Shown: piece by piece, positions 10,130-56,300 of the stretch | How the letters are laid out: each line of letters opens with the position of its first letter | Position numbering within the stretch: position 1 is the first letter of the stretch | NCBI GenBank assembly: GCA_964016885.1 | Contig: OZ024740.1 | Span: forward strand, 242,110,001 to 242,174,000 | Length of the DNA: 64,000 nt | Origin: Eledone cirrhosa | Lineage: Eukaryota | Reading direction: 5' to 3' | The notes under the pieces: generated by a model | Seen by the model: only the letters and a program-made list of their open reading frames with translations | Told to the model about the DNA's origin: nothing | The model's database searches: none | Position numbers and translations under genes: made by a program

Positions 10130-10177
<48 letters not shown>

Positions 10178-10226
10178 GTTGTTGTTGTTGTTGTTGTTGT
10201 TGTTATTGTTGTTGTTGTTGTTGTTC
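10130..10226. repeat. (ATT)n-(GTT)n compound microsatellite
   Basis: Direct. Confidence 0.95.
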
Positions 10227-10619
10227 GTGATGCTGTTCTTGTAATTTATTTCATTTTAGTTTATCAGAGCTACATTATATTTATCAGGTCGGGGATAGCT
10301 ATCCAATTGAACAAGTCAAACCCACTTGTATTTAATATTTTGAAATTATTTATTTGCTTATTTACTGACTTTTCTTCGTTACATGATGGTGGTTGTGGAG
10401 GTCCTGTTTAAAAAGAACTTTCTCAGTTAGTATTCTAGCATACATCCTGAGTAAAATAAATTATATTATTGTTGTTGTTAGAGTCGTGAAGTGGTAGAAG
10501 TGTTAAGAGTACAAGTTAGATACTAAACAGAATAGAACTTACTTTCATCAGTTTATGTTCAGAGATGAAATCGTGCAGAGATGATCATCTTTTCTCTGGG
10601 TCGAATTAGTCGTGTTTTT

Positions 10620-10721
10620 AAAGGGCAAGACAAAATGCCCTGCACTATTTATTCTGGCTATCTGCAGTCTGAGTTCAGATCCCGACTAAATTAATATATG
10701 ACTTTCATTCTTTCAGAGTCA
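10620..10721 (+). mobile_element. Old tRNA-derived SINE, 5' half (continues at 29102-29130)
   Basis: B-box-like GAGTTCAGATCCC then GACTTTCATTCTTTCAGAGTCA, matching SINE core GCCTTTCATCCT..GGGGTCG. Confidence 0.6.
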
Positions 10722-10741
10722 TCGTCGTTATTATTATTATT

Positions 10742-10906
10742 TCGGAAGTCTCCCCACTATTGGGGAATTTTTCCTTGTTTTCTGTTATGTTACATCCTCT
10801 GTTTTTGTTTCTTACACGCAGAAATACCCATTTGTACCGTCCTGTATTGTCCTGTGTTGTCCTTAATGTTATACATTGTGTCAACCCTTGTGGCTAATAA
10901 AGAAAG

Positions 10907-10908
<2 letters not shown>
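10742..10908 (+). mobile_element. Tx1-like LINE family B, 3'-end fragment between ATT tracts
   Basis: Matches the 3' UTR at 27214-27357; ends CCCTTGTGGCTAATAAAGAAAGC-(ATT)n. Confidence 0.85.
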
Positions 10909-10937
<29 letters not shown>

Positions 10938-10938
<1 letters not shown>

Positions 10939-13209
10939 GAAGCACTATACTGCAACTGGCAGCAGAATGGGAGTATTCCCAGTTCTGTGAGCAGGAGAGT
11001 GGTGACGCTGATAAGGAAAGACGAGAACAAGAGGGATACATTAGACAACTTCAGGCCCATAACTCTGCTCAACACAGAGTTTAAGATTTTAGCCAAGGTG
11101 TTAACAAAGAGATTGGCGCTTGTCGTCGAGGATTTGGTTGAGGAGGCGCAAACTTGCGCCATCCCAGCCAGGTCCATACACGACAATCTCCACCTCATGC
11201 GATACATCATAGAGAGGGTGGGGTGTAAACCGGGCTTCGGTGGGGCACTGATCAATTTAGATCAATCGAAAGCATTCGATAGGGTCGACCATCGGTATCT
11301 GGAGTTTGTCCTCAAAGCGGCTGGCTTCGGCCCTGTTTTCAGAAGCTGGATCGCTGCAATGCGCAGCGGCATACGCTCGGTGGTCAAGGTTAATGGCCAC
11401 CTCTCGGAACCATTCCGGCTCTCCCGATCGGTCCGTCAAGGGTTCCCTCTCTCTTCCCTTCTGTACTTATTGACTCTCGAGCCTTTACTACGGAAGCTGG
11501 AGCTGTTGCATGGCATCCCGCTCGAACCGGGACGTGGAAAGGCGGTGTCGGCTTATGCGGACGACATCACCGTGATGGTGTCGAACACCTCAGAAATCGA
11601 GGTGGTCGGCAACTTATTGAAGGAAAATGAAAGGTTGACAGGAGCCAAACTTAACCCGGAAAAGTCGGTGGGCTTGCAGCTCGGAACCTGGAGAGGCAAG
11701 CCAATGTCGTCCAACAGCTTCGTGGGGCGCTGGACGGACGGACCGATAAAGTTGCTCGGGGTTTGGTTCGGACCAGACCTCCAGGTGGAAAAGAATTGGG
11801 ACGAGGTAACGAGCAGATTAACCAGTCTCATCCAAAAATGGGCTGGGAGGAAGCTATCACTGAAATGTCGCGCGGAGGTGGCGAATGTGTACATCGCGTC
11901 CGTCATCTACTACCGCCTGACCGTCGTGCCTTGCCCCCATCCGCGCCTCGTCAAGTTGGAACGGCTACTCTTCAAATTCTTGTGGAAAAGACAAGTTCCG
12001 TTGGTGAGGCGGTCCATCTGCTGCCAGCACCCTCTACGCGGAGGGCTGGGTATGCCGTGGCTAGTGATGCGCAGACATGCGTTGAGGCTGCGACATCTCC
12101 AGATATTCTGCCTAAACGGTGAACAGGTGTGGTCGCCGTTTATCAGACGGGCCTTTCCGCAGCTCATTTCTTTGACTGAGCTGCCGTCCTGGGTCAAGAA
12201 GAGACCGAGACGGGGTGACTGGAACCTGGAATGTTGCCAGGCACTCGCTGCCCTCTACCAAGCGGGCAATGCGATCAGTGGAACTTCCACTCTCGAGTTC
12301 TATATAGAGGATTAGTGGTGGGAAAGTGCGATGGCGCACTCGGAGAAGCTTTGGGCCTCGACGAAGTTGAACTGACCAGTCTGTACCGGAGGATTTCGAG
12401 CCGGAGACAATGGACAATTTCCAGAAATCCCTCGCTTGGCAGTGCTACCGGAGGGGGGGGGGGCACTGCTGGTTCGGGATAAACTCTACAGGCACGGAAG
12501 TGCTGTCAGACGGACCTGCGCCAGATGCGCACAGAACGACGAAACCGTTCTACACGCACTTGTCCAATGTCCGTGCATTACTGACTTTTGGAGTTATGTC
12601 GAACAGCTACTGTCGCGTGTGGAACGAATCCGGCTATCAGCTGAGTCCATAGTGAAGATCGACCCGCCGCCTTCTTTAGGTCAGGAAGAGCAGGAAATTT
12701 TCTTCTGTCTGGTGGCAGTTGCAAAAGAGGTTATATGGTGGACGTGATTAAAGGACTGAATACAGACACTTTTCTCTTCGGCCAATCCCTCATCAACTTC
12801 TTCAAGTTTCACCTGCAAAGGAAGGTGTGGGTGGAGAGAGAAGTGCCCCCCCCCCAGTACATTTGCTAAAAGGTGGATGAATGTGGCGAGAATGGCCCGT
12901 GTGAATGGGCCTACTCTGACCATGCGGCTATAGGCTAGCTAACGTGAGGAGAGGGGTTCTCTCCTGGGTGCCCTAGAAGCGCAGGGTGGTTCAGGATTGG
13001 TGGGGCACCTGAGTCACCCCAGGGTCGTCCACCCCTATCGGGGAATTTATTTTGTTATATTTATGCATAGTTTATTTTATATTTTTTATATTTACATTGT
13101 TAAATTAGTCTTGCCATTGTGCACTTTTACTCGACCTTATTGTAAACCCTCACTGTCCCTGTCTTTGTATTGTCCCCTACATATCGGTCCTTGTGGCTAA
13201 TAAATGAAA

Positions 13210-13211
<2 letters not shown>
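10938..13211 (+). mobile_element. Tx1/L1-clade LINE family A, 5'-truncated (RT + C-terminal CCHC), frameshifted near its 3' end
   Basis: NFRPITLLNTEFKILAK, LDQSKAFDRVDH, RQGFPLS, SAYADD, GGLGMP, CARCAQNDETVLHALVQC; ends CCTTGTGGCTAATAAATGAAATC-(ATT)n. Confidence 0.9.
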
Positions 13212-13253
<42 letters not shown>

Positions 13254-13255
<2 letters not shown>

Positions 13256-15076
13256 AGTTGCATTTATCTTGCTTTATGTTCATACGAGTTATCACCAAGT
13301 CACAACCAGTGACCTCAAGAGACAACAAGGTCCGCCATATTCAAGAAAGAACATACATATTCACACATGCATCCTTAGTGTTTAGACTTGTGATGTACTT
13401 ATATTGACAGAATCTTCCTTAGTATATGGGCAGTTCCCATTAGTACTATCTTTTGTATTTCTCCTATACGCGGGTTTCCTGGGATTTGCGATAAGTAGTC
13501 ATTAGACCCCTTAGGTATCATTCCCAGAGCGCCTACAACCACTGGTATTGTTTTAGTTCTCAATTTCCACATTTTTCCAATTTCTATCTCCAGGTCCTTA
13601 TACTTGCTCAATTTTTCAAATGTTTTTATAGATACATTCTTGTCTATTGGAACGGACATATCAATTAGCAGGCATACCCTCTTTTTAAAGTCCTTCAGTA
13701 TTATATCAGCTCTATTTGCATCTATTTTTCGGTCTGTTTGGATGCTAAAGTTCCACAAGATTGAGATGTGATCTTTTTCAAGTATGGGAGGTGGTTGATG
13801 CTCCCACCAATTCTTTTGATGGGGCAGGTCAAAATGCTTACACATTATCCAATGTATGTATTGTGCAGCTCTGTCATGCCTGTTTAGGTATTCGGTTGGA
13901 GCTATAGGACTGCACATTGAAATTATATGGTCAATGGTCTCTGGTTGTTTTTTACATACACGGCATAATGGGCTGCACCCATTTTTTATTATGTTGGCTT
14001 GGTAATTTTTTGTTGGCAGACACTGATCTTGTGCCGATATAATCAGTCCTTCAGTCTCCGATTTCAGTCCAGAGGATGCCAACCACTGATGGGTTAAAGT
14101 TTTGTCAACATCAGGATTGTTAGCTCTTTCTGGGTATTTTCCATACAGAGGCTTTTCTTGACATTTCTTAGCCAGTTTCTGTAGCAGTTTTTTCGTTGCA
14201 GTTACTTTTACCTGCTTTGCTTTTTCTGTGTTTTCCATTTCAGCAGTAAATGGGACTTCTGAAATATGTAGTCCATTACTGTATCTTTGTGCATCTTTTG
14301 TAATGGAATATGATCTTTTGATGCTTTCGTGTTTCAAAACGAGTTTGATTATCTAATCATATGATTCGCTTAGATATGTAGATAATGCAATTGTTGCAGT
14401 TTTCAACGCAATATCTAACTGGATTAACCCACGTCCTCCTTTCATTCCTAGGGAGATATATTCTATCTGTATCTGCCTTAGGGTGATGCATTCTGTGCAT
14501 GGTTAAGAATTTTCGGATTTTTGTATAGCGCCTACGGATCTCTGTGCTTGACCAGTTGATGACATTGTAACTGTAGGTTACTACTGGTATGGCAAGCGTG
14601 TATGGCATCGATTCTATTCCTTGTATTCAATTCCGTTCTTAAGATTGCTCTTACTCTGCGGTAACATTCCTTCCTTATCCTTTCCCTCATTGTCGAGTGC
14701 TTGATTCCGTCTCCTTCACAAACACCTAGATATTTGTAAGTTTTTTCTTGATCAAGTTCTCTTATCACGTACCCCCGATCAAGATTAATGTCTGAACTCT
14801 TCAGCAGCTTTCCTCTGGTGAACATTGCTTTGGCGCGTTTATCTAGTCCAAACTCCATTTTAATGTCATCACTGAACTGCTCCACAGTGGATAATAGCCC
14901 TTGCAATTGTTCATCCTTTTCTGCAAATAGTTTCAGGTCATCCATGTAGAACAGGTGATTAATGGTTTTGTCATAGACTTTATATCCATGTTTTGTTTCA
15001 TTGAGTATTTTACATAATGGTATAAGTGCGATGCAGAATAAAAGCGGTGATAAAGAGTCACCCTGAAAAATTCCAC
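13254..15076 (-). mobile_element. Dong/R4-clade RLE retrotransposon family B, 5'-truncated, frameshifted
   Basis: GIFQGDSLSPLLF, HLFYMDDLKL, CRVCKKQPETIDHIISMC, RHD, NRADII..LIDMSVP..KLSKY, PVVVGALG; (TAA)n tail. Confidence 0.9.
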
Positions 15077-15259
15077 GGTGAATCCATTTCGATGTCACGA
15101 GATAATTTTTTTTTGTTTGTTTCTGTTGTCGCTGTGGTGGTGGTGGGGGTGGCGGCTTCAACACCTGCAGTCATTGGTAATGGCGGGAAATGAATGTCTG
15201 CATGAGTCAAATTTAAATTAATGCTACTGCTTATATTTGTAGTGTTGGCAAACGTAGTA
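15077..15259 (-). mobile_element. Tx1-B ORF1 segment fused to the 5' end of Dong-B
   Basis: Reverse complement of ~21823-22013 (TTFANT..HADIHFPPLPMTAGVEAATPTTTT). Confidence 0.85.
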
Positions 15260-15282
15260 TTATTATTATTATTATTATTATT

Positions 15283-15597
15283 TGTTGAAAGATGGGTGAG
15301 AGAAGCAAGAATGGCCCGAGTGAATTGGCCTACTCTGAGTATGTGTCTGTAAATTAAAGGTGGAAAACTGCGAGAGGGCACTTGCCCTGGTGGTCAGAGT
15401 CACTGTGGCCTTTTAATGGGCTTTCTCCACAAATGTCCCTCCGAAGTCTCCCCCCTATTGGGGAATTTTTCATTGTTATTTTTATTACAACCTCTGTTTT
15501 TGTTTTTTACACGCAGAGATGCCCATTTGTACCGTCCTGTATTGTCCTGTACTATCCTCAATGTCTACTTTATGTAAACCCTTGTGGTTAATAAAGA

Positions 15598-15600
<3 letters not shown>
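15283..15600 (+). mobile_element. Tx1-like LINE family B, 3'-end fragment
   Basis: Matches 27056-27357; ends CCCTTGTGGTTAATAAAGAAAG-(TAT)n. Confidence 0.88.
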
Positions 15601-15625
<25 letters not shown>

Positions 15626-15628
<3 letters not shown>

Positions 15629-15736
15629 CAAATCCCGCCGAGGTTGACTTTGCCTTTCATCCTTACGGGGTCGATAAAATAAAGTACCAGTAATGCACTG
15701 GGTAATTGCTGGCCTTGTGCCTAAAGTAGAAACAAT
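15626..15736 (+). mobile_element. tRNA-derived SINE, 5'-truncated, in (ATT)n
   Basis: TTCAAATCCCGCCGAGGTTGACTTTGCCTTTCATCC...GCTGGCCTTGTGCCTAAAGTAGAAAC; matches 27431-27617. Confidence 0.88.
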
Positions 15737-15773
15737 TATTATTATTATTATTATTATTATTGTTATTGTTATT

Positions 15774-18533
15774 CCTTGAATCTCAGTCATTGATGTTGGT
15801 TAACTGGAAAGTCCGTTGGATTGAATATCAAGCCACTACCTGCAGCCTCAGATATTCAGGACGTATCGGAGGGTTCTTGCCGTTCCAAGCAAGCATGCCT
15901 TTTGAAGCGTTCCAAAAAGCGTGAAGGGGCCGATTTTCTTTAACCATCCCTGGAAACCTTTGGAGATAGTCCCCAGTGCGCCTATGACAATCGGGATCAC
16001 TTTGACTTCATGGCAGTTCCAAATCCTTTTCACCTCCCACTTTAGGTCCTGGTATCGGTTAATTTTCTCCCTCTCCTTCTCTTGCACTCTCGTGTCGAAC
16101 GGGCAGGCCACATCCACAATCAGGCACGATCTTTTTTCTTTGTCCACAACCACCAGGTCAGGTCTATTGTGTTCCAGTTTTTTGTCCGTCTGTATCCTAA
16201 AATCCCACAGCACCTTCACCTGACTGTTCTCCATCACCGCCTCTGGCCTATGCTCATACCATTTCTCAGAATGTGGTAGATTGTTTACTTTGCACAGGTG
16301 GCAGTGGATCACCCTGCCCATCACATCGTGTCTCCAGCCCTTATAGTGGGTCTGGGCTAGGTGTTTACACTCGGACACAATGTGAGCCACAGTCTCCTCT
16401 CTCTCTCCACAGATCCTGCACAGTGGGCTAGCCTCCTCCTTGTAGATATGGTGCTTCAACCACTTCGTTTTGAGGGCCTGCTCCTGCGCAGCCATTAGCA
16501 TTCCTTCTGTAGCCTTTTTGAGGTCTCCTCTTCTCAACCAGTTCCATGTCTGTGGATCTCTAAATTCAGTTTTCTCAAAGAAGGTACTATGAAGGGATTT
16601 TCCCTTAAGGCTGCTCTTCCTCCTTGATGTTATTTCCTCCTTGGGTATCCCCTGGCCTACTGTCCCCTCCTTCAGTACAGCTCTGAGCATTGGCTCCTTA
16701 CTATAGGTCACGTATTTGTATAGGTTGTTTTTCTCCATCTGAACACAGTCCTCTATGCTGATAAGACCTCTTCCACCCTCAGATCTCCTTAGGTAGAGTC
16801 TATCGACATCACTCCTCTTGTGGAACATGTTGTAGATAGTCAATAGCTTCCTAGTCTTCCTATCCATTTCTTTTTGTTCAGCAACATTCCATCTCAGAAT
16901 TCCCGCACTGTACCTAATAATAGACACAGCTCGGGAATTTACTGCGCTTATGGCATTTCTGCTGTTCAGATGTGACTTCAATACGCTCCTTACTCTCCGA
17001 ATGTATTCAGTTCTTAACAATTCCTTCATTTTTTTGTTCTTTATGCCATCAGCCTCCAGAACGCCCAAATACTTGTATCCTTCCTCAGAGTCAATTTCCT
17101 TTATCATCTCACCTGTTGGTATCTGGATCCCGTTACTTCTGCTCAACCTACCCCTCCTCATCACAATGACTCCACATTTACCAATACCAAACTGCATACA
17201 TATATCACTGCTGAAAATACGGACAGTGTCAACAAGCACATCCAACTCCTTCTCACTTTTCCCGAAGAGCTTAAGATCGTCCATGAAGAGGAGGTGATTG
17301 ATGGTAAGCTCTCCCCTTCCCAACTTGTATCCTGCTCTCACTTTTCGCAGCATAATGGTCAAGGGCATCAGGGCAAGGACAAACAACAGAGGGGACAGGC
17401 TATCTCCCTGGAAGATACCTCTCTTGATCTTCACGCTTCCCAAGGATACTCCAGTTGATGTCAACTCTGTCTCCCAGGACCCCATACTCCTGCCCAGCAA
17501 CTGTCTGATGTTATCTGCCACCCTGAAGATCTCCAGGCTTTTGGTGATCCAGGAATGAGGCACCATGTCAAATGCCTTTCTGTAGTCTATCCATCCCATG
17601 GCAAGATCAGTGTGTCTCCTCCTGCAATTCCCCATTACCATCTTATCAATAAGCAACTGGTCCTTTGTACCACGTGACTTCTTTCGGCATCCTTTCTGTT
17701 CGTCCGGCAACAAGTTGTTTGTGTGGAGGTGATGGTAGATTTCCTCAGACACAATGCTCGTCAACAGTTTCCACATTACGGGCAGACATGTGATAGGTCT
17801 ATAGTTGGTAACATCATTACCCTTGATTCGGTCTTTCATTATCAGAACTGTGGTACCTTTTGTCAACCACTCTGGCACCTCACCCGACACCAAGCAGTCA
17901 TTGAACATGGCCGTCAGCTTCGGGTGGAGGGATGTTAAATGTTTAATCCAATACCCCTGCACACCATCTGGGCCTGGTGATTTCCAGTTGGTTAGTTTTT
18001 TGGCTTGCCCCTTAAGAGTTTCAACTGTGATACTCAAATCAGTCTGTTGCTGTGCCTGCTCACCGATCTCCCTCTGTACTGTCTCAATCCACCCTGCCTG
18101 GGCATTGTGTCTAACATCCTGCTCCCATATTCCTCTCCAGAATGTTTTAGCTTGTTCCGCCCCAGGGATCAAGTCGTTGCCTCTTTCTTTCCCCTCAAGC
18201 TGTCCAAACAGCATCTTCTGGTTGTTGTCGAACATGCGGTTCTGTTTATACTGACTGACTCTGTTCTCGTATCGCCTGATTTTGGCACTCTTTGCTACAA
18301 TGCGTTGCTTCAATTCCTCTATGATAATATTTAGCTTTTTACTCCTAGTTTTGTATTTTATTTCCAGTCTATTTTTAGTGCCTATGTTTTTTAGTGTCCC
18401 ATTCAGTAGTGACTCAAGCTTTCCTATGTCATTTCTCATTTCCCCGATTTGCCCACTCAGTCGCTTCTTCCACCACGGCTCTGCTCTTTCTTGTCTGTTG
18501 TTTCCTCTCGCTTTTATACCAAAGCGAGAGGTA
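15774..18533 (-). mobile_element. Dong/R4-clade RLE retrotransposon family A, copy 1 (5'-truncated, ORF uninterrupted)
   Basis: Bounded by ATT tracts; ~75-nt 3' UTR ending AATAACAATAAC(AAT)n. Confidence 0.93.
15848..18439 (-). CDS. RT + CCHC zinc knuckle + restriction-like endonuclease polyprotein (N-terminally truncated; frame stays open to ~18530)
   Basis: SPGPDG, NYRPITCL, WIDYRKAFDMVPH, GIFQGDSLSPLLF, FMDDLK, GGRGL, CRICGEREETVAHIVSEC, RHD, RPDLVVVD..IVDVACP..KINRY. Confidence 0.9.
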   Translation of the reverse strand: MRNDIGKLESLLNGTLKNIGTKNRLEIKYKTRSKKLNIIIEELKQRIVAKSAKIRRYENRVSQYKQNRMFDNNQKMLFGQLEGKERGNDLIPGAEQAKTFWRGIWEQDVRHNAQAGWIETVQREIGEQAQQQTDLSITVETLKGQAKKLTNWKSPGPDGVQGYWIKHLTSLHPKLTAMFNDCLVSGEVPEWLTKGTTVLIMKDRIKGNDVTNYRPITCLPVMWKLLTSIVSEEIYHHLHTNNLLPDEQKGCRKKSRGTKDQLLIDKMVMGNCRRRHTDLAMGWIDYRKAFDMVPHSWITKSLEIFRVADNIRQLLGRSMGSWETELTSTGVSLGSVKIKRGIFQGDSLSPLLFVLALMPLTIMLRKVRAGYKLGRGELTINHLLFMDDLKLFGKSEKELDVLVDTVRIFSSDICMQFGIGKCGVIVMRRGRLSRSNGIQIPTGEMIKEIDSEEGYKYLGVLEADGIKNKKMKELLRTEYIRRVRSVLKSHLNSRNAISAVNSRAVSIIRYSAGILRWNVAEQKEMDRKTRKLLTIYNMFHKRSDVDRLYLRRSEGGRGLISIEDCVQMEKNNLYKYVTYSKEPMLRAVLKEGTVGQGIPKEEITSRRKSSLKGKSLHSTFFEKTEFRDPQTWNWLRRGDLKKATEGMLMAAQEQALKTKWLKHHIYKEEASPLCRICGEREETVAHIVSECKHLAQTHYKGWRHDVMGRVIHCHLCKVNNLPHSEKWYEHRPEAVMENSQVKVLWDFRIQTDKKLEHNRPDLVVVDKEKRSCLIVDVACPFDTRVQEKEREKINRYQDLKWEVKRIWNCHEVKVIPIVIGALGTISKGFQGWLKKIGPFTLFGTLQKACLLGTARTLRYVLNI

Positions 18534-18563
18534 TATTATTATTATTATTATTGTTATTGTTAT

Positions 18564-21037
18564 TCCTTGAATCTCAGTCATTGATGTTGGTTAACTGGAA
18601 AGTCCGTTGGATTGAATATGAAGCCACTACCTGCAGCCTCAGATATTCAGGACGTATCGGAGGGTTCTTGCCGTTCCAAGCAAGCATGCCTTTTGAAGCG
18701 TTCCAAAAAGCGTGAAGGGGCCGATTTTCTTTAACCATCCCTGGAAACCTTTGGAGATAGTCCCCAGTGCGCCTATGACAATCGGGATCACTTTGACTTC
18801 ATGGCAGTTCCAAATCCTTTTCACCTCCCACTTTAGGTCCTGGTATCGGTTAATTTTCTCCCTCTCCTTCTCTTGCACTCTCGTGTCGAACGGGCAGGCC
18901 ACATCCACAATCAGGCACGATCTTTTTTCTTTGTCCACAACCACCAGGTCAGGTCTATTGTGTTCCAGTTTTTTGTCCGTCTGTATCCTAAAATCCCACA
19001 GCACCTTCACCTGACTGTTCTCCATCACCGCTTCTGGCCTATGCTCATACCATTTCTCAGAATGTGGTAGATTGTTTACTTTGCACAGGTGCCAGTGGAT
19101 CACCCTGCCCATCACATCGTGTCTCCAGCCCTTATAGTGGGTCTGGGCTAGGTGTTTACACTCGGACACAATGTGAGCCACAGTCTCCTCTCTCTCTCTC
19201 CACAGATCCTGCACAGTGGGCTAGCCTCCTCCTTGTAGATATGGTGCTTCAACCACTTCGTTTTGAGGGCCTGCTCCTGCGCAGCCATTAGCATTCCTTC
19301 TGTAGCCTTTTTGAGGTCTCCTCTTCTCAACCAGTTCCATGTCTGTGGATCTCTAAATTCAGTTTTCTCAAAGAAGGTACTATGAAGGGATTTTCCCTTA
19401 AGGCTGCTCTTCCTCCTTGATGTTATTTCCTCCTTGGGTATCCCCTGGCCTACTGTCCCCTCCTTCAGTACAGCTCTGAGCATTGGCTCCTTACTATAGG
19501 TCACGTATTTGTATAGGTTGTTTTTCTCCATCTGAACACAGTCCTCTATGCTGATAAGACCTCTTCCACCCTCAGATCTCCTTAGGTAGAGTCTATCGAC
19601 ATCACTCCTCTTGTGGAACATGTTGTAGATAGTCAATAGCTTCCTAGTCTTCCTATCCATTTCTTTTTGTTCAGCAACATTCCATCTCAGAATTCCCGCA
19701 CTGTACCTAATAATAGACACAGCTCGGGAATTTACTGCGCTTATGGCATTTCTGCTGTTCAGATGTGACTTCAATACGCTCCTTACTCTCCGAATGTATT
19801 CAGTTCTTAACAATTCCTTCATTTTTTTGTTCTTTATGCCATCAGCCTCCAGAACGCCCAAATACTTGTATCCTTCCTCAGAGTCAATTTCCTTTATCAT
19901 CTCACCTGTTGGTATCTGGATCCCGTTACTTCTGCTCAACCTACCCCTCCTCATCACAATGACTCCACATTTACCAATACCAAACTGCATACATATATCA
20001 CTGCTGAAAATACGGACAGTGTCAACAAGCACATCCAACTCCTTCTCACTTTTCCCGAAGAGCTTAAGATCGTCCATGAAGAGGAGGTGATTGATGGTAA
20101 GCTCTCCCCTTCCCAACTTGTATCCTGCTCTCACTTTTCGCAGCATAATGGTCAAGGGCATCAGGGCAAGGACAAACAACAGAGGGGACAGGCTATCTCC
20201 CTGGAAGATACCTCTCTTGATCTTCACGCTTCCCAAGGATACTCCAGTTGATGTCAACTCTGTCTCCCAGGACCCCATACTCCTGCCCAGCAACTGTCTG
20301 ATGTTATCTGCCACCCTGAAGATCTCCAGGCTTTTGGTGATCCAGGAATGAGGCACCATGTCAAATGCCTTTCTGTAGTCTATCCATCCCATGGCAAGAT
20401 CAGTGTGTCTCCTCCTGCAATTCCCCATTACCATCTTATCAATAAGCAACTGGTCCTTTGTACCACGTGACTTCTTTCGGCATCCTTTCTGTTCGTCCGG
20501 CAACAAGTTGTTTGTGTGGAGGTGATGGTAGATTTCCTCAGACACAATGCTCGTCAACAGTTTCCACATTACGGGCAGACATGTGATAGGTCTATAGTTG
20601 GTAACATCATTACCCTTGATTCGGTCTTTCATTATCAGAACTGTGGTACCTTTTGTCAACCACTCTGGCACCTCACCCGACACCAAGCAGTCATTGAACA
20701 TGGCCGTCAGCTTCGGGTGGAGGGATGTTAAATGTTTAATCCAATACCCCTGCACACCATCTGGGCCTGGTGATTTCCAGTTGGTTAGTTTTTTGGCTTG
20801 CCCCTTAAGAGTTTCAACTGTGATACTCAAATCAGTCTGTTGCTGTGCCTGCTCACCGATCTCCCTCTGTACTGTCTCAATCCACCCTGCCTGGGCATTG
20901 TGTCTAACATCCTGCTCCCATATTCCTCTCCAGAATGTTTTAGCTTGTTCCGCCCCAGGGATCAAGTCGTTGCCTCTTTCTTTCCCCTCAAGCTGTCCAA
21001 ACAGCATCTTCTGGTTGTTGTCGAACATGCGGTTCTG
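18564..21037 (-). mobile_element. Dong-A copy 2 (5'-truncated; 2-bp CT insertion frameshift at ~19190)
   Basis: Near-identical to copy 1; ORFs 19148-21103 and 18639-19214. Confidence 0.93.
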
Positions 21038-21148
21038 GGTTGTTGTCGAACATGCGGTTCTGGGTTGTTGTCGAACATGCGGTTCTGGGTTGTTGTCGAA
21101 CATGCGGTTCTGGGTTGTTGTCGAACATGCGGTTCTGGGTTGTTGTCG

Positions 21149-21149
<1 letters not shown>
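21013..21149. repeat. 25-bp tandem repeat (5 full units + 12 bp) at the 5' junction of Dong-A copy 2
   Basis: GGTTGTTGTCGAACATGCGGTTCTG; present once in copy 1 (18220-18244). Confidence 0.95.
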
Positions 21150-21207
<58 letters not shown>

Positions 21208-21208
<1 letters not shown>

Positions 21209-21567
21209 TGAGTCTCAGTCACTGATGTTAGTTAACTGGAAAGTTTGTTGAAATGAATATCAAGCCACTACCTGCAGCCTCAGATATTTAGGACGTATCG
21301 GAGGGTTCTTGCTGTTCCCAGCAAGCATGCCTTTTGAAGCGTTCCAAAAAGCGTGAAGGGGCCAATTTTCTTTAACCATCCCTGGAAACTTTTTGAGATA
21401 GTACCTAGTGCGCCTATGACAATCGGGACCACTTTGACTTCTGGCAGTTCCAAATCCTTTTTACCTCCCACTTTAATTCCTGGTATCGGTTAATTTTCTC
21501 CCTCTCCTTCTCTTGCACTCTCGTGTCGAATGGGCAGGCTACATCCACAATCAGGCACGATCTTTTT
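21208..21567 (-). mobile_element. Dong-A copy 3, short and more diverged 3' fragment
   Basis: VVPIVIGALG..LQKACLLGTARTLRYVLNI plus 3' UTR; (TAA)n tail. Confidence 0.88.
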
Positions 21568-21742
21568 TAAATCGTATCATCGGGAGCTCCGCAAAGGTTT
21601 GTTGTTTTCAGTTGTTTCAAATTGCCATTTATGGAAAATGTTTGTTGTTAAGTGTTTATAAGGTCACATAATTTGCTTTCGGGCCTTGAGCCCAAAATTT
21701 ATACTTTTATAATTATCAAACAAAAATTAGTTTGAAAAAAAC

Positions 21743-23725
21743 ATGGACGACTCACAGCTACACCAGGCTGACAGCCTGCTTCACAAACTAATACCTCACA
21801 CCAACACCACCATTGTAAATATTACTACGTTTGCCAACACTAAAAATATAAGCAGTAGCAATAATTTAAATTTGTCTCATGCAGACATTCATTTCCCGCC
21901 ATTACCAATGACTGCAGGTGTTGAAGCCGCCACCCCCACCACCACCACAGCGACAACAGAATCCCCCCCCACCAAAAAAAAAAATTATCTCGTGACATCG
22001 AAATGGATTCACCCAAAATCAACTCTTCCACACCGAACACCTCTGACGCCACGCCACGCCACCACCACCACAACTGAAACTAAAAATAAAAATAACAAAA
22101 ATACCAATAATAACAACAGCAACAACAACAATGAGAATAACAACACCTTGTTGTTTGCCAAAGCAGCCAAAAAATGCGAAACAATCTAGGTAACTCAGGA
22201 GGAATTAAATGAAACCAAGAGAATGGTAAAGAAAGATGGGTACAGGGTCGCCCCCCCCCCCCCCCCCCCGACCCCCACCCCCCACCTAATAAAATGGAGC
22301 ATCGGCGCCTATGCACCGTGTCTTATCGGACGATTAACATAAAATCGCGCCGAGTGGAACGGGCATCCGAATCCCAAATCCGAAAAGCTTTGGGACATGT
22401 GTGGGCAAAAAAATCCACATCAGACGTGGGCAGAAATATAGAACCGTGGACGTGTTCTTTGGAACACGACAGGAGGCCAGAGAGCACTCCATGGCCCCAT
22501 TAAGAAGCGACGACTTCACACTCGTCCCAAGCTATTGTGGCCAGATACTCGTAAAGATCAGGGTGACCCACAATCCACCGGCCATCGAAATTCCCTGGCG
22601 AATGGCTGCCGTCCTCGCCGGCATCGAGGCCAACACCAAAATAATAGAAATAGCAAAAGAAAAGCAGGAGAACTGGTCCGGATCTGGGATGGAGCTCTTG
22701 ATCCAAGCGGACCAAAAAAGCATTGAGGAGATCCCAGGGGTAATATACCTCACTGACGGCAGCCACCTCACCATAATCGTCGAGGGTAGAAGGCCTAGGT
22801 GTGTCGTTTGTGGTGAAGGAACCCACCAAAGGGCTTTCTGCCTTCAGGCTAAAAAGTTGAGGCCACCTCTCTTACCCACCCCAGTGACTCAACCATCAAC
22901 ACCACCAGCAGCAGAAATGGCAGCAACATATGTAGCAGCAACAACAGAAGCAACTGTGGCAGCAACAACCCCAGCAACAGTCGCAAAACCAACACCACCA
23001 CCACCAAACGCGCCAGAACTAACACCAGTGCCTACACAATCCACCACGCCACAACCAAAACCAACGCCTGTGGAGAATTTTCCACTCCCCGACCTATCGC
23101 AACTGGAGACAGATTGTGACGACGAGGAGTGGGTAACGGTATCAGGAAATAAGAAAAAAAAGAAAAAGAAGCCAAAAAAGAAAAAAATCCTCTTCCTTCC
23201 CCCTCCAAAAACAAAATATTGAGGGAAACAAATAAACTATCAAACAAAAAAGTTAGGACAGCTATGTCACCATCCACACCAGCATCACCAACCCCATCAC
23301 CACAAATACCAACACCATCACCATCATTAACCCCAACACCATCATCACCAACACCACAAAAGTCACCAAAAAGCGAAACAGAAACAAACCCACAACAAAC
23401 GCAGACAAAACAAAACAACCAAAACGATACACACTACACAACATTAAATTTGAACAACAACCAATTATTACACTACATCCAACACAACACCAGCATCACA
23501 GAAAAAGACTACAGAACACCCCAAAAGTTCACACCACCTCCACACATACAAATCATTCGCATCACACAGAAAACGTACACGACACTAAAACAAAAATTCC
23601 CCAAAGACATCGGAGACTTCCGACAAGCACTCTCCAGGAGGATTTATAAGGACATCCTTCCGGAGGAGGCCTCAAGCAGTGAAAAGGATGGAGAAACCAT
23701 CCTTCCTCTACAAGAAGTAAGGTAA
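21743..23725 (+). pseudogene. Tx1-B ORF1 (gag-like; RRM-like region, CCHC knuckle, long Pro/Thr-rich tail), frameshifted
   Basis: IIVEGRRPRCVVCGEGTHQRAFC (C-X2-C-X4-H-X4-C); lies directly upstream of APE. Confidence 0.75.
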
Positions 23726-23759
23726 GTGGTCTTTCCCATCTTTTCCATTCCATTTCAAC

Positions 23760-26700
23760 ATGACCTCACTCAGAATAGGCAGCATAAATGCGTGTGGCTT
23801 GGGGTCACCATGGAAGCAGGGCTGACTACTCATCGACCTCAGGTCACTAAACATAGATGTAGTGGCCATCAGCGAGATCAGAATCTCCGAAGCACAGGCC
23901 TTCGCACCGATCTTCGGCGGCTACGATGTGTGCGCATCTCCCAGCCGTCCTGGATCGGGGGGGGGGGGGAGTTGCTGTGCTTTTTCGAAGAGGTTTGGAT
24001 CTCGCTATACGGGCCATCTTCCTGGATCCAGAACCCAGCAGGTAAGTTGGTGGTGCTGGACGTGACCAGCAGAGACGGGCAAGCTTTCAGGCTAGTGGCG
24101 GTCTATGCGCCGACAGGAGCAGGGCGGCCTGATTTCTTCCGGCGTCTGGAGACCTTTCTTGGAACATCCCGCTCTTTAGTGTTAGTGGGCGACTGGAACG
24201 GGATCTTAGATGCACGCTGGGACTGTTTGGGATTAGCGGATAGGGGAGGAGGGTGCAAGAGCCTCACCAACCTGCGTTTTGAACCGTCTGATAGGTACCG
24301 ATTGGATTTCCCGAATGTGCCAATGTGGACTTGGACAAACCGCGTCGGGTCATCCAGATCATATCTAGATAGAGTATTTTGTAGGGAAATAGATAGGTCT
24401 AGCATAGGCTGTCCACAATTCAAGATAGTCAGCTACACGGGCCACAAATTCGTGATCTGTGTCCTTGACTTAGATAGGCTTCATAGACGAGGACCCGGCT
24501 ACTGGAAGCTAAACGCGTCCTCAAGAAGCGCGCAAAGCCAACAGAGACCGGGTTAGCGAACTAGTTAAGCGGGCGTTGACGGGGGCCATCGTCAACAACA
24601 AGTGGCGGTGTGCTCTGAAAAGAGCGATTAGAATAGAGTTCATTAGGTTTAGTAAGGCTTTAGCTATAGAGAAAAATAGAGCAGAGGGTGAACTAGTTAG
24701 AAAATTAGACGAGGCGCTTAGCAAAGGCATCGTGACCGACGTACTTCCGGCGAAATTGGCCCTTGACCAATTCTTCAATGCAAAGCACGAAGGCTGCGTT
24801 GTCAGAGCTAGGGTGCGTGCTCTCAGACACGAGGGGACGAAAGCCGTTAATAGGCCCAAGTGGCGGAGGCGCGTCCTAGCAACAAAGCCACGATCCGGTC
24901 TTTGGTGGACCACGAAGGGCGCATGCTACTCGATCCCGGACAAATGTGTGAAGCTTTTCGCTCAACTGTTCTGGGGCAACGGGGGGACGGATCGAGGGAT
25001 GGACTTTAGTGTCTACCTCGACGGATTGCTGCGGCTCTCGGCCACTGAGGCAGAGTGTTGCGAAAAGCCGATAACAGCTGCTGAAGCACGGGAGGCAATG
25101 ACTGGCTGCACAAGGGTTAAATCACCTGGTTTGGATGGTCTGCCCTATGAATTTTACGTACAGATGCCAGACTTGTTCGGAGGCCTCTTGGCGGACGTCT
25201 ACTGCAACTGGCAACAGAACGGGAGAATTCCCAGCTCTGTGAGCCGAGGAGCTGTGGCGTTGCTGAGAAAGGATCCGAACAAGGGGTATAACGTAGATAA
25301 TTTCAGGCCCATAACATTGCTAAACACAGAGTTCAGATTTTGGCCAAGGTGCTTGCAAAGAGGTTGGCGCTTGTCGTTGGTGGTCTGGTGAGAGAGGCGC
25401 AGATATGCGCCATTCCCGACAGATCCATCCACGACAACCTCCACTTCATGCGATACATCGTAGAGAGGGTAGCTAGGGAACCTGGCAGGGGTGGGTCCTT
25501 GATCAATTTAGATCAGTCGAAAGCTTTCGATAGGGTCGACCAACGTTACCTAGCGGCAGTCGTGAGAGCAGCCTGCTTTGGGCCCGTCTTCAGAGGCTGG
25601 ATCGCTGCCATGCACAGCGACATCTGCTCTGTAGTGAGGGTGACCGGTCACCTTTCGGAACCGCTCAACATCATGCGCTTGGTCCGCCAAGGATGTCCCC
25701 TCTCGTCCCTCTTGTATATATTTACTCTCGAGTCATTACTGCACAAACTGGAGACGTTGAGGGGGTCCCGTGCGAACTAGGATGCGGAAGATCGGTGTCA
25801 GCATATGCGGACGATGTCACCGTAGTGGTATCGAACGCCAAACACATCGAGGCGATCGGCACTACACTAAGAGAATACGAAGCGGTGACAGGAGCAATGA
25901 TCAACCAGGAAAAGTCAGTGGGCCTGCAGCTCGGCACCTGGAGAAGCAGGTCCATGCCGTCCAACAGCGTCGTTGGGCGCTGGACGGACGGACCGGTTAA
26001 ATTGCTAGGAGTCTGGTTCGCTCCGGACCTCCAGACGGACAAAAACTGGGACGAGGGCAGAGAGGAAGCTATCCCTGAAAGGTCGAGCGAGGGTGTCTAA
26101 CGCGTACATCGCCTCCGTCATCTTCTACCGCCTGATCGTCGTACTTTGTCCTAAGCCTCGCCTGACTCCGCTGGAGCGTTTGCTCTTTCGCTTTTTGTGG
26201 AAGGGACGCGCTCCGATGGTCAAGCGGTCCATCTTCTGTCAACACCCGCTACGTGGAGATCTGAGCATGCCGTGGCTGATGATGCGCAGACACGCGCTCA
26301 GGCTACGACATCTCTGCCTCTTCCTCGACGGTGATCAAGTGTGGTCGCCGTTTGCTAGACGCGTCTTTCCCCAGCTCGTCTCCTTGACGGAGCGGCAGTC
26401 CTGGGTCAAGCGAAGACCGAGAGGGAGCGCTTGGAGACTGGAATGTCTTCAGACGCTCACAACCCTCGACCAATCGGGCAATGTGATCGGTGGAAACTCC
26501 ACCTTGGCGTTCTATATAGGATGAGTGGATAGGAAGAGCGACGACGTAATTGGGGAAACTCTAGGCGTCGACGAAAATCAACTAGCCAATCTCTTCGGAA
26601 GAACTTTCGGGCCCGGGCCTATGGATAACTTCCAGACATCCCTGGCAGTGCTACCGAGGAGCTTTGCCTTTTCGGGATAAACTCGACAGGCATGGAGGTG

Positions 26701-27127
26701 CCGTCAGCCGGGCATGTCCGAGATGCGCGCAGGGCGACGAAACCGTCCTGCACGCACTCGTCCAGTGTCCGAGCATTGCTGACTTGTGGGTTTATGTCGA
26801 ACACCTGCTGTCGCGTGTAGGACGGATCCAGCTATCAGCTGAGTCCATCGTGAGGATTCCCCCGCCCTCTTCCTTTAGCCGGGAAGGGTAGGCAGTTTTT
26901 ATCTGTCTGGTGGTCATGGCGAAATAGTATGGTGGACACGTTTGAAAGGGCTGAAGACGAGCACTTACCTCTTCGGTGATGCCCTGATTAACTTTTTCAA
27001 ATTTCATTTGAAAAGGAAAATCAGAGTAGAGAGGGAAGTGCTCTCTACCCAGCATTTTGTTGAAAGATGGGTAAGAGAGGCAAGAATGGCCCGTGTCTAT
27101 GGGCCTACTCTGAGTATGTGTCTGTAA
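23760..27127 (+). pseudogene. Tx1-B ORF2 (APE endonuclease, RT, CCHC), multiple frameshifts
   Basis: MTSLRIGSINACGL, VAISE, AVYAP, LVGDWN, SYLDRV, GPGYWKLN, KSPGLDGLP, SAYADD, CPRCAQGDETVLHALVQC. Confidence 0.9.
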
Positions 27128-27357
27128 ATTAAAGGTGGAAAACTGGGAGAGGGCACTTGTCCTGGTAGTCAGGGTCACTGTGGCTTTTTAATGGGCTTTC
27201 TCCACGACGTCCCTCGGAAGTCTCCCCCTATTGGGGAATTTTTCATTGTTCTTTTTTTGTTACATCCTCTGTTTTTGTTTTTTACACGCAGAAATGCCCG
27301 TTTGTACCGTCCTGTATTGTCCTGTACTGTCCATAATGTCTACTTTATGTAAACCCT

Positions 27358-27406
27358 TCAGTAATGCCCTGGGTAATTGCTGGCCTTGTGCCTAAAGTAG
27401 AAACAA
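27358..27406 (+). mobile_element. SINE 3' tail fused directly to the clipped Tx1-B 3' UTR
   Basis: ..TAAACCCTT|CAGTAATGCCCTGGGTAATTGCTGGCCTTGTGCCTAAAGTAGAAAC. Confidence 0.8.
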
Positions 27407-27430
27407 TTATTATTATTATTATTATTATTG

Positions 27431-27616
27431 TCAGTGGATTGGCAGTATCGTTAGAGGGTCGGACGCCATGCTTTGACACAAAGAGTTACGGCCCTTTCCA
27501 TTCTGAGTTCAAATCCCGCCGAGGTTAACTTTGCCTTTCATCCTAACGGGGTCGATAAAATAAAGTACCAGTAATGCACTGGGATAGTTGCTGGCCTCGT
27601 GCCAAAAGTAGAAACA

Positions 27617-27617
<1 letters not shown>
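27431..27617 (+). mobile_element. Full-length tRNA-derived SINE in (ATT)n
   Basis: A-box-like TGGCAGTATCG, B-box GAGTTCAAATCC, core GCCTTTCATCC..GGGGTCGATAAAATAAAGTACCAG, tail, ATT. Confidence 0.9.
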
Positions 27618-27652
<35 letters not shown>

Positions 27653-27663
27653 GTTATTGTTAT

Positions 27664-28926
27664 TCCTTGAATCTCAGTCATTGATGTTGGTTAACTGGAA
27701 AGTCCGTTGGATTGAATATCAAGCCACTACCTGCAGCCTCAGATATTCAGGACGTATCGGAGGGTTCTTGCTGTTCCAAGCAAGCATGCCTTTTGAAGCG
27801 TTCCAAAAAGCGTGAAGGGGCCGATTTTCTTTAACCATCCCTGGAAACTTTTGGAGATAGTCCCCAGTGCGCCTATGACAATCGGGATCACTTTGACTTC
27901 ATGGCAGTTCCAAATCCTTTTCACCTCCCACTTTAGGTCCTGGTATCGGTTAATTTTCTCCCTCTCCTTCTCTTGCACTCTCGTGTCGAACGGGCAGGCC
28001 ACATCCACAATCATGCACGATCTTTTTTCTTTGTCCACAACCACCAGGTCAGCTCTATTGTGTTCCAGTTTTTTGTCCGTCTGTATCCTAAAATCCCACA
28101 GCACCTTCACCTGATTGTTCTCCATCACCGCCTCTGGCCTATGCTCATACCATTTCTCAGAATGTGGTAGATTGTTTACTTTGCACAGGTGCCAGTGGAT
28201 CACCCTGCCCATCACATCGTGTCTCCAGCCCTTATAGTGGGTCTGGGCTAGGTGTTTACACTCGGACACAATGTGAGCCACAGTCTCCTCTCTCTCTCCA
28301 CAGATCCTGCACAGTGGGCTAGCCTCCTCCTTGTAGATATGGTGCTTCAACCACTTCGTTTTGAGGGCCTGCTCCTGCGCAGCCATTAGCATTCCTTCTG
28401 TAGCCTATTTGAGGTCTCCTCTTCTCAACCAGTTCCATGTCTGTGGATCTCTAAATTCAGTTTTCTCAAAGAAGGTACTATGAAGGGATTTTCCCTTAAG
28501 GCTGCTCTTCCTCCTTGATGTTATTTCCTCCTTGGACATCCCCTGGCCTACTGTCCCCTCCTTCAGTACAGTTCTGAGCATTGGCTCCTTACTATAGGTC
28601 ACGTATTTGTATAGGTTGTTTTTCTCCATCTGAACACAGTGCTCTATGCTGATAAGACCTCTTCCACCCTCAGATCTCCTTAGGTAGAGTCTATCGACAT
28701 CACTCCTCTTGTGGAACATGTTGTAGATAGTCAATAGCTTCCTAGTCTTCCTATCCATTTCTTTTTGTTCAGCAACATTCCATCTCAGAATTCCCGCACT
28801 GTACCTAATAATAGACACAGCTCGGGAATTTACTGCGCTTATGGCATTTCTGCTGTTCAGATGTGACTTCAATACGCTCCTTACTCTCCGAATGTATTCA
28901 GTTCTTAACAATTCCTTCATTTTTTT

Positions 28927-28928
<2 letters not shown>
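27664..28928 (-). mobile_element. Dong-A copy 4 (5'-truncated, one nonsense mutation at ~28405)
   Basis: ORFs 27739-28392 and 28405-28920 nearly identical to copy 1; ATT tracts on both sides. Confidence 0.93.
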
Positions 28929-28990
<62 letters not shown>

Positions 28991-29101
28991 CGGTGGGGTC
29001 GTGGGAGCAGAGATTTCAGACACGCCTCCAGAGCTCATAGATATTATCAAACCATCTTGCTCGTGGTCTACCCCTGGTTGGTTTTGTCCGGAAAATCTGT
29101 C
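28991..29101 (-). mobile_element. RTE (Expander/Rex3-like) 3'-end fragment with (TAA)n tail
   Basis: Minus strand encodes QIFRTKPTRGRPRARWFDNI and LKSLLPRP; DNA matches the RTE end at 53713-53757. Confidence 0.7.
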
Positions 29102-29879
29102 CAGAGTCAATAAAATAAAAGTACCAGCTGAAGTTGTGGAAACGGTAAAAATGTTAGAACGTATTTGTTTCGGCTTTTTGCGTTCTTAGTTCTTGGATGA
29201 AAGATTTAAATCGCTCACCCGGTTTGACAATTCTTCCTGTTCCTTGTGTACCTATAAAAAAACTCACTCCATAGCATGCTTTCGGGTTATGTCCTTTGTA
29301 TGAGGGCAACGTCTATCCAACTGAAACCAGTCTTTTGCTAGTATTTTATATATTTCATACTAAAAAGTTAACCCAAACAAACGAAACATTAATAGTGTTT
29401 TTTAAGTTCATTGATGAGAACAATAGCAATAACGAAAAAAAAACAAAAAAAAAAAACAATGCCAGACTGGTTGGAATAGCGTTGTTAAATTTTCGAAATT
29501 CGTTTCGCTAGAAAAGTAGTCTAAATTATTTCGTTGTGTATATAAGAAAAAGAAAACAGTTAGAACAAAAAACAAAATATGTTTGTGTTTTCCAAACCTT
29601 TCAATCCATTTTAAAATATCTTACCAATTACGCCAAGAACATATGCCGGAAACATTTTAGTTGAAGGATTTACTGGTGGAGAGGCATATTCTCAGTAAAA
29701 TACAACAAACAGAACAAGTATACACATGTATGCAAGCTTGTTGCCAATTGGATTTGCTAAGTCCAAGACACGGACACTGGCAATAACAGTGCCATCAAAA
29801 CACTGCCACAACACACACTGCAACCATATCTGTTTCGGTCGATTAATGCTCCAACAAAGAGTCTCTTCCGAGCCGACTT

Positions 29880-54325: not shown

Positions 54326-56300
54326 TAGTGGCGTAACTAGAGTGTGTGCCGCCCGGGGCATCCCTTCAGTTTGCTGCCCCCGGGCCCCACAAAAATATAT
54401 TTTGCACAGTGACTATATATATATATATATATATATATAAGTTATATATATATATTAATTAGTCTGTGTACAATTATGATATTACTTTCACATATTCAAA
54501 TATAGTACATTTTAAATACACACCAAACAAACCCAAATTTTATAAATAACAGTTAAACAAAAAGCAAAAATGACATAAAGGGAAACAAGTAAAAAAGTGT
54601 AAATCTTTATTTCTGAAAAAAGTAAATAAGTGACCATCTTTATTTCTGAAAATAAAACTATAACTTACTACAAAGTAACTTTTCTTGCTATTTTGTTGGC
54701 AAATTCTTGAATATTGTCAAAAACCATTTCATCGGTCGATCGTCGCTCTATAGACAGTATGGCAAGATTTCTCATCCACAAGGTGCGCATAGTAGGTCTT
54801 AAGTAATTCTTGATCAGTTTTAGTTTCGAAAAACTCCTCTCATTGTTAGCAACACTAACAACAACTGCGAGGAAAATCCGCAGCATTATTACTATATTTG
54901 AAACCGAGTTCCCAAGGTTATATCTTTGAATAAACAGCAAAAGTTTAAGGGGGTCGTCTTCCACGTTTTACACTCTTTAACAGCAATAAAATGCTGAAGT
55001 CTTTTTCTCACAACTAGGAACTCCTCTTTATCAATGCAGACGTGATCTATTTGTCACTCATAAAGATTCAATGGGGTAAGGAAGACATATTTCTCAGCAA
55101 GTTCATGAAGTTGTTGAAATCTCAAAGTTATTTCTTGGATCACACTGTCCAGTGAAGAAAACATTTCTCTATTGAATTCAATGTCGTATGGCTATTCAAA
55201 ATGTTGTAATCCTTCACCAAATATTTGTTTTTTTTCTTTTTGGGGTCGGCGCTGACGCTTCATGACTATCCACAGATCATTGCAAATTGCTTTATCATAG
55301 TTAACTTGTTCTAAATAATAGAAGGCAGATATGAAATAGCAAACTTGTTTCCCAGCTGGATTTTTAGATGGTCACGTAGCACTGGATTATATTTCGCCAA
55401 CAAATGAACAAACTCTAAAAGATTTCCTCTATATTCCGTTGCTTCAGGTTCAACATCAGTCTCATTTCTCTCATAATTCATTCCTTCTCAGTGGCCTCGT
55501 AAAACCAATTTCTGTTTAGCTAAGAATCTAATAATTGTTTCTACTTTTGGCACAAGGCCAGCAATTACCCAGTGCATTACTGGTACTTTATTTTATCGAC
55601 CCTGTAAGGATGAAAGGCAAAGTTAACCTCGGCAGGATTTGAACTCAGATCAGAAAGGGGCGTAACTCTGTGCTACAAAGCATGTTGTCCGACCCTCTAC
55701 CGATACTGCCAAACCACCAAATCTAATAATATCAAGCAATCTTGAAAGGATTTCCTTCCACTTTTTCACTTGGATTTCAACAACGTCTTCTTTTTTTTAT
55801 CAGTTGTTGCTCCATGATCAATCCCAATTTCCAAATCCTTCCATTATGTGAAATTCCGCAATGGATTCATGCTTAGATATTCTAGGATTCAGTTTCCACC
55901 CTATGTTGAATCCATCCTCATAATTAAATTTTGAGTTACTTTTATCTGAAAACAGTTTGCAACAAAAACAATAAAGAGCTTAATTGGAAGGGGAGTACAC
56001 CATCCATGATCTCAACATTCATTCACCATTTGACAGAGTTTGAAAACACCACTTGCGTGTTAGATCTCTAGTTTGTCCTTTGCTTGACAGACCTTGACGA
56101 ATTACTTCACCCAAATCAGAATCTAGATCTTCAACCAGAGACGCCCCCTGACATACCAGAAAGATATGTATGTCATTGCTAATCTTGCTTGGCCATAATC
56201 CAACATCTTGACCCGGAATATTTTCTTCCCCGTGTTCTTCATCACTTGAAGGGAGTTGAAGCTGACGAATCTCTTGAAGTTGAACCCATTGACTTTGACA
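54326..56300 (-). mobile_element. Decayed, internally deleted hAT transposon (ZMYM1-like transposase)
   Basis: Terminus TAGTGGCGTAACTAG; dimerisation domain LRIFL..SVANNERSFSKLKLIKNYLR..LAILSIE; N-terminal RSWMVYSPS..ALYCFCCKLF and FLAKQKLVLRGH. Confidence 0.85.
55536..55719 (-). mobile_element. tRNA-derived SINE inserted in hAT with 11-bp TSD AATCTAATAAT
   Basis: TSD at 55525-55535 and 55720-55730. Confidence 0.9.

Follow-up and report, generated by a model that had tools for sequence, protein, structure and literature searches.

An 18.4-kb array of Tx1-like, Dong-like and SINE insertions probably grown from the ATT/TAA tract of an RTE-like insertion in Eledone cirrhosa

The 64,000-nucleotide stretch analysed here (the window; contig OZ024740.1 of the Eledone cirrhosa assembly GCA_964016885.1, positions 242,110,001 to 242,174,000) contains an 18.4-kb array of retrotransposons embedded in an old short interspersed nuclear element (SINE). 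The explanation that we regard as probable is that an RTE-like long interspersed nuclear element (LINE) with an ATT/TAA tract at its 3' end was inserted at this site and took 12 insertions of Tx1-like LINEs, Dong-like LINEs and a SINE, collectively called the guild below, which lie in opposite fixed orientations, likely because every insertion divides the tract and so provides a target on either side of itself. The names Tx1, Dong and RTE are putative and were given from architecture and target. The locus is one large instance of a variant of known microsatellite targeting that occurs across the genome, and the process is a selfish one for which no host function is indicated.

The array is bounded by an 8-bp target-site duplication (TSD), CAGAGTCA, located at 10714-10721 and 29102-29109 inside the old SINE, which is the sole 8-mer common to both 55-bp junction regions. 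With an intact SINE as reference, the left half of the old SINE (10603-10720) matched SINE positions 7-124 (alignment z ~8; 0 of 300 shuffles), and on the right flank the match continued from position 126 over 18 nt that include one inserted base, a score that was equalled at 23 of 100,000 random positions. The sequence past 29127 matched no SINE tail that we have seen. Since the flanks are collinear with one SINE, no ATT tract was present at the site before the first insertion. The interrupted SINE and its duplication had been proposed in a first-pass annotation of the sequence; the coordinates held. Self-comparison and a library of natural copies resolved the interval between the TSD copies into a 111-bp RTE-like 3' fragment, 12 insertions (one Tx1-A, three Tx1-B, three SINE, four Dong-A and one Dong-B) and 11 ATT tracts, arranged as follows.

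10603..10721, + strand: 5' part of the old SINE, covering SINE positions 7-124 and closing with the left TSD copy; alignment z ~8
10714..10721, + strand: left TSD copy, CAGAGTCA
10722..10741, - strand: probable remnant of the RTE GAA tail (CGACGA on the - strand) and (ATT)4 tract, the remnant being read from the sequence
10742..10907, + strand: Tx1-B 3' fragment, the oldest guild piece; ~90% to closest copies
10938..13211, + strand: Tx1-A, 5'-truncated, with reverse transcriptase (RT) and zf-RVT domains; 94%
13254..15076, - strand: Dong-B, 5'-truncated within RT; 97.6%
15077..15258, - strand: 182-bp stretch from a Tx1-B (beta) 5' region, joined to Dong-B at its 5' junction
15283..15601, + strand: Tx1-B 3' fragment; 94%
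15629..15734, + strand: SINE, 5'-truncated
15762..18533, - strand: Dong-A copy 1, with an open 895-aa frame (RT, CCHC, PD..D motif); 99.4% to closest copies
18553..21148, - strand: Dong-A copy 2; at its 5' junction (21009-21149) a 25-bp unit recurs in 5.7 copies
21209..21568, - strand: Dong-A copy 3, older (95%), adjoining Tx1-B without a tract
21569..27358, + strand: Tx1-B, near-full-length, beta 5' type, frameshifted, short of its 5' end by ~17 nt and of its 3' end by 18 nt
27359..27405, + strand: SINE 3' fragment, 47 bp, adjoining Tx1-B without a tract
27430..27616, + strand: SINE, full-length
27653..28927, - strand: Dong-A copy 4; 99%
28928..28990, + strand: (TAT)21 tract, beginning at the RTE stop-codon region
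28991..29101, - strand: RTE-like 3' fragment with ~60-bp internal deletion; ~86% to family copies
29102..29109, + strand: right TSD copy
29110..29127, + strand: old SINE resumes (positions 126-142)

The inventory by family is exactly that of the first-pass annotation, as is the near-universal spacing by ATT tracts; the inverted 182-bp Tx1-B 5' fragment, the 25-bp repeat (x5.7) and the two losses from the RTE fragment had not been listed there. The array holds 11 tracts of at least four ATT units, as compared to 14 in genome samples taken at even spacing and totalling 400 kb. A tract is absent at two junctions (21568/21569 and 27358/27359), and in both cases a younger insert has its 5' junction against the long Tx1-B, which is consistent with target deletions.

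The RTE-like 3' fragment lies on the - strand just inside the right TSD copy, as had been noted earlier, and carries a ~60-bp internal deletion as well as loss of the normal last ~15 nt. Other ends of this family consist of PSQE-stop and six bases followed by (GAA)n, and the TAA/ATT tract is a minority variant located between the RTE stop codon and the GAA tail (tail pattern counts on the forward strand, 652 GAA vs 24 TAA). About 44 distinct RTE ends with (TAA)4 were present among the matches listed, and in most of them the repeat starts at the stop codon, like the one in this array; 40 of the 44 loci were fetched (all but the window itself and three doubtful cases), and 38 could be oriented. 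When these were read by hand, 24 of the 38 had a guild element inserted straight into the tract, 13 had an empty tract and one was a (TAA)n(TAG)n end. Twelve of the 13 empty ends had a GAA run after the tract and one had a short GA remnant. By comparison, a guild element was found in the tail of 0 of 20 GAA-type ends, which had all been drawn from contig 1 (Fisher p 8e-7; 1.5e-5 counting one SINE beyond the tail). Of 17 arrays at other RTE ends whose closing boundary fell inside the retrieved sequence, 11 terminated in (TAA)n(GAA)n, a class into which the window fits, the CGACGA at the left end of its array being probably what is left of the GAA tail. One of the 17 closed arrays (L265) is bracketed by a 9-bp duplication.

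These data show that a truncated RTE-like LINE first entered the old SINE with an 8-bp duplication; its stop codon TAA, in phase with the native (GAA)n tail, may then have slipped into (TAA)n at the inner edge of the tail, for which the empty tracts at 13 of 38 other TAA-type ends offer a parallel. The proposal that the RTE insertion seeded the array thus stands as regards the founding event and the origin of the tract within its boundaries, but the family tail is (GAA)n and not (TAA)n. In the version of the first-pass annotation, the (TAA)n tail came in with the RTE element; its source would be a variant master with a TAA tail, or slippage in reverse transcription. The number of (TAA)4 ends starting at the stop codon speaks for this, as does the report that RTE tails vary and slip in retrotransposition (PMC2887409). 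We nevertheless consider it somewhat unlikely, given the predominance of GAA tails, the GAA that still follows the TAA tract (13 of 14 empty ends, 11 of 17 closed arrays), and the outcome that no close TAA-tailed subfamily was found, the best relatives being 89% identical.

The target choice of the guild was assessed at 29 other loci for each of Tx1-B, Tx1-A and Dong-B. The 5'-junction counts comprise copies with a visible junction and no internal deletion, 41 copies having run off the flank and 7 having internal deletions. A tract of the element's own polarity was present at the 5' junction of 12 of 15 truncated Tx1-B, 10 of 13 Tx1-A and 9 of 11 Dong-B copies, and one of opposite polarity in 0 of 39. 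A wider count of Dong copies, partly from the same loci and with Dong-A drawn from copies met in other loci, yielded own-polarity tracts in 23 of 29 Dong-A and 13 of 21 Dong-B copies, and opposite polarity in 0 of 29 and 1 of 21, respectively. Truncated Tx1 copies were sitting in ATT in 22 of 28 cases. As a tract at the 5' end cannot be the element's own tail, the families insert into the repeat. The polarity is consistent: Tx1-like elements and the SINE face ATT and Dong-like elements face AAT, and in chains of more than one element 107 of 109 elements followed this rule. The APE-type (apurinic/apyrimidinic endonuclease) Tx1-like LINEs and the SINE would nick the AAT strand, and the RLE-type (restriction-like endonuclease) Dong-like LINEs would nick the other one. 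Tolerance beyond pure ATT was also seen, with Tx1-like copies inserted where ATT runs on into (CTT)n or (AGT)n (L089, L276, L045).

The SINE, which ends in TAGAAACA, and Tx1-B both show no tail of their own. In 28 unselected SINEs, ATT directly followed the SINE end in 26, and 11-20 nt of the 5' flank were repeated downstream in 15, with the TSD beginning at ATT. Tx1-B duplications measured 14 nt (L039) and 13 nt (L055), and an off-target Tx1-B copy (L059) lacking an ATT tail had a duplication of 9 nt exact by script and ~18 nt with one mismatch by eye; Tx1-B hence combines a target preference with TSDs of L1 type (13, 14 and ~18 nt). Since the SINE and Tx1-B duplicate 11-20 nt from ATT, insertion into a tract leaves tract on both sides, and for the SINE and three Tx1-B copies this repetition of ~11-20 nt would be the step by which the target is regenerated; for Dong, some TAA was probably added from its own RNA. 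The last 26 nt of the SINE align to Tx1 3' ends (z 3.7-4.8; 2.1-3.6 with a variant copy) and not to Dong ends (z -0.5 and -2.1), which makes it likely that the SINE uses Tx1 proteins; it also has a target signature in common with that LINE.

The order of insertion was approximated by the median identity to the ten closest fetched copies, a rough proxy that is inflated for short abundant SINEs. The values were 86.5% for RTE, 89.8% for the left Tx1-B, 92.3% for the long Tx1-B, 93.9% for Tx1-A, 94.0% for the full SINE, 94.4% for the Tx1-B fragment, 95.4% for Dong-A copy 3, 97.6% for Dong-B, ~98% for the SINE fragments and 99.0-99.4% for Dong-A copies 1, 2 and 4. Old and young copies are interleaved, and the young ones occupy four separate internal positions, a pattern which a single fixed site would not give and which points to re-use of daughter tracts. 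From these ages it appears that daughter tracts would have been taken again, and positive feedback in array growth is plausible.

Several observations weigh against the explanation of an RTE-founded tract that was split and re-used. No empty or partly filled allele was seen: contigs of one sample, probably the assembled individual, cross both outer junctions unbranched, and RAD-seq (restriction-site-associated DNA sequencing) runs of other individuals give no coverage of these junctions. Of nine other closed arrays, only one had a bracketing RTE duplication, where chance alone would give 0.4. There is also some circularity in choosing RTE ends by (TAA)4, as insertions lengthen tracts, and the empty (TAA)n(GAA)n ends could have been left by insert loss or abortive Dong events instead of preceding the inserts. 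Only 8 of 28 unselected SINEs lay at three or more ATT units, so that the ATT preference of the SINE is loose. The duplication lengths that bear on target regeneration come from the SINE and Tx1-B. Finally, array sizes (n = 30) were fitted about equally by a 1+Poisson model lacking feedback (log-likelihood -63.2) and a size-biased geometric model with feedback (-62.6).

This last result bears on the possibility that there is no feedback and every tract acts as a fixed sink with a constant rate of filling, long arrays then reflecting age and the tolerance of a neutral site. The size distribution does not reject constant filling, and a vacant (ATT)16(GTT)17 tract at 10130-10225, of which (ATT)16 is 10130-10177, has remained unoccupied 500 bp from the array. 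The duplications that regenerate targets and the four separate internal positions of young copies, however, argue for feedback, and arrays of at least 12 elements have a probability of 1.5e-4 under the Poisson fit vs 1.4e-2 under the geometric fit, a comparison affected by the window having been picked for its large size. We therefore judge constant filling to be unlikely. The positive-feedback community suggested by the first-pass annotation is supported as regards re-use of daughter tracts, but the size distribution fits both models.

Alternatively, a Dong element could have made the first tract by inserting at the RTE AATAA or GAA tail, with its own RNA supplying the TAA units. Truncated Dong copies carry AAT on the sense strand at the 3' end in 50 of 50 cases and at the 5' junction in 36, leaving 14 without it, and young Dong-A copies have a degenerate AATAAC end in common. 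Against this, no Dong was found in any of 20 GAA tails, the tract at RTE ends is located on the Dong 5' side, which is target-derived, and the oldest guild piece in the window is Tx1-B, which makes a Dong origin quite improbable. That the array is an assembly artefact or a local tandem duplication can practically be dismissed: the neighbouring Dong-A copies 1 and 2 are 99.8% identical, but they are truncated at different 5' points and copies elsewhere are 99.5-99.7% identical, similar arrays exist at many loci, and sequencing contigs span both outer junctions (the outer junctions only).

Similar ATT-spaced arrays, for which a scan had been suggested, were indeed numerous. In 30 neighbourhoods of 20 kb, corresponding to ten early-listed matches per family in the 3.0-Gb assembly, 26 were arrays of 2-8 elements and up to 16.4 kb, three of them open-ended; these sizes are lower bounds, since the element library is incomplete. 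Evenly spaced samples totalling 400 kb contained 12.5 kb of guild-like LINE matches (3.1%, diverged relatives included), and such an arrangement was found in 1 of 40 stretches. The view of the window array as a special locus was consequently not borne out, and it is one of a genome-wide class with sequence-specific targeting.

The identity of the families was assessed from their coding regions. An intact Tx1-B (L215) has two open reading frames (ORFs) of 730 aa and 1195 aa, the second with APE, RT and zf-RVT domains (Pfam) and L1 ORF2 as its best PDB match (E 2e-52); the Tx1-like families thus display two ORFs, an APE/RT/C-terminal zinc domain arrangement and L1-group affinity. Close relatives (40-79%) carry no family name. 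Tx1-B occurs as alpha and beta types (seen at L215, L198 and L200 and at 21569-23680 of the window), in which two unrelated 5' halves (untranslated region and ORF1) are joined to a common ORF2 and 3' end; the long copy in the window is of beta type, and three intact copies, of the alpha type, are 99-100% identical, indicating that the family is recent. The 895-aa frame of Dong-A matched RVT_1 (E 4e-23), and R2 was its nearest PDB match, scoring above L1; no named Dong or R4 element was among the protein matches returned. None of the Dong copies in the window retains a full-length 5' end, the site of the HDV-like ribozyme expected in the Dong/R4 clade. It also contains CCHC at 706, RPD..DV at 791 and KxxxY at 824, which we take to be the patterns of a CCHC finger and a PD-(D/E)xK restriction-like endonuclease, giving the combination with RT expected of Dong. 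The RTE-like assignment was made from 3' fragments, by architecture and C-terminal motifs presumed to be characteristic. The C-terminus of the family matches a 1049-aa protein with endonuclease and RT domains, and the single APE-RT frame, the very short 3' untranslated region ending in a microsatellite and the TSD (7-15 bp in RTE elements) agree with RTE. The 8-bp TSD lies within the RTE range given in PMC6007223.

The ingredients each have a precedent, and what is gained is their combination and scale. Dong of Bombyx mori, DongAg, DongBg and the R4 clade insert into TAA microsatellites (PMC3812793), and the families described here resemble them in the TAA target, the single RT frame with CCHC and PD..D, and R2 proteins as nearest solved structures. 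They differ in that two young, abundant families insert into the same target as Tx1-like LINEs and a SINE, forming mixed arrays that reach 18 kb; their placement in the clade is putative. Kibi, Koshi and crocodilian Tx1 families are likewise APE-type Tx1-clade LINEs in microsatellites, with (TC)n, (TTC)n, (TTCC)n or (TTTC)n as their specific targets (PMC4494074), whereas the target here is (ATT)n and occasionally ATT(CTT)n (L089, L276). The crocodilian SINEU, mobilised by Tx1-Mar, forms tandem copies around one TSD (PMC4494074) and similarly has the target preference of a Tx1 family, but its target is Mariner and not a microsatellite, and the present SINE has a Tx1-like 3' terminus. In Lepidoptera, truncated RTE 3' ends yield microsatellites by slippage (PMC2887409), while here a minority TAA variant of the GAA tail turns into a target for other elements. 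Dong-R4, L1-Tx1 and RTE are expanded or active in octopus genomes (PMC8967140, PMC13282606); the repeat annotation of PMC13282606 includes active Dong-R4 and L1-Tx1 families and hotspots, and the words 'target' and 'nested' had no match in its main text. Our literature search returned no description of an ATT-specific Tx1 or of mixed Tx1/Dong/SINE arrays, though Repbase, subscription papers and supplements lay outside the search and may contain them.

More broadly, and as a tentative proposal to which we give slightly less than even weight, the elements may make up an active guild whose two unrelated kinds of endonuclease came by convergence to act on the two strands of a single trinucleotide, with arrays multiplying targets as a branching process and a non-member LINE continuing to supply landing pads by slippage of its stop codon into (TAA)n. 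Among its members would be the first ATT-specific Tx1 families and their SINE, and it would amount to a few percent of the genome. The intact, near-identical Tx1-B copies and the 99%-identical Dong-A copies would represent APE and RLE enzymes reading the same three bases on opposite strands, and a shared target sequence with target regeneration offers a testable cause for transposon hotspots.

Some further features of the families were observed. Full-length Dong-B copies (L237-L238, L241-L242) carry a SINE-like 3' fragment in the 5' region with (AAG)n in front, and at the same loci Dong-A and Dong-B have a common 5' terminal motif that is sometimes duplicated. Another recurring terminus, with 8 copies ending in ...CACAATAATTTC, stands ahead of ATT tracts, and a third Tx1-like 3' end was also seen (L203, L213, L006); additional guild members are likely. 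The 182-bp Tx1-B (beta) piece at 15077-15258 has the same sense as Dong-B and is 94% identical to other copies and 92% to the local one, and it likely arose by a template switch between both families. Twin-priming inversion was judged less likely, since the inverted piece derives from ~5 kb upstream of the forward one, with an ATT tract between the two. Tandem copies of a Dong element's own last 25-26 bp were found at 5' truncation ends in the window (21009-21149, 5.7 copies) and at L217-L218 (C2 near 195437146-195438148, 38 copies), and are a possible source of minisatellites; a scan of Dong copies returned these two real cases only, among many simple-repeat false matches. An Rfam search of the array gave nothing meaningful. 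Elsewhere in the window, a weak RT-like frame (E 0.006) is present at 46003-47025, and solitary SINE copies with short duplications starting at ATT occur at 40247-40489 and 55529-55731.

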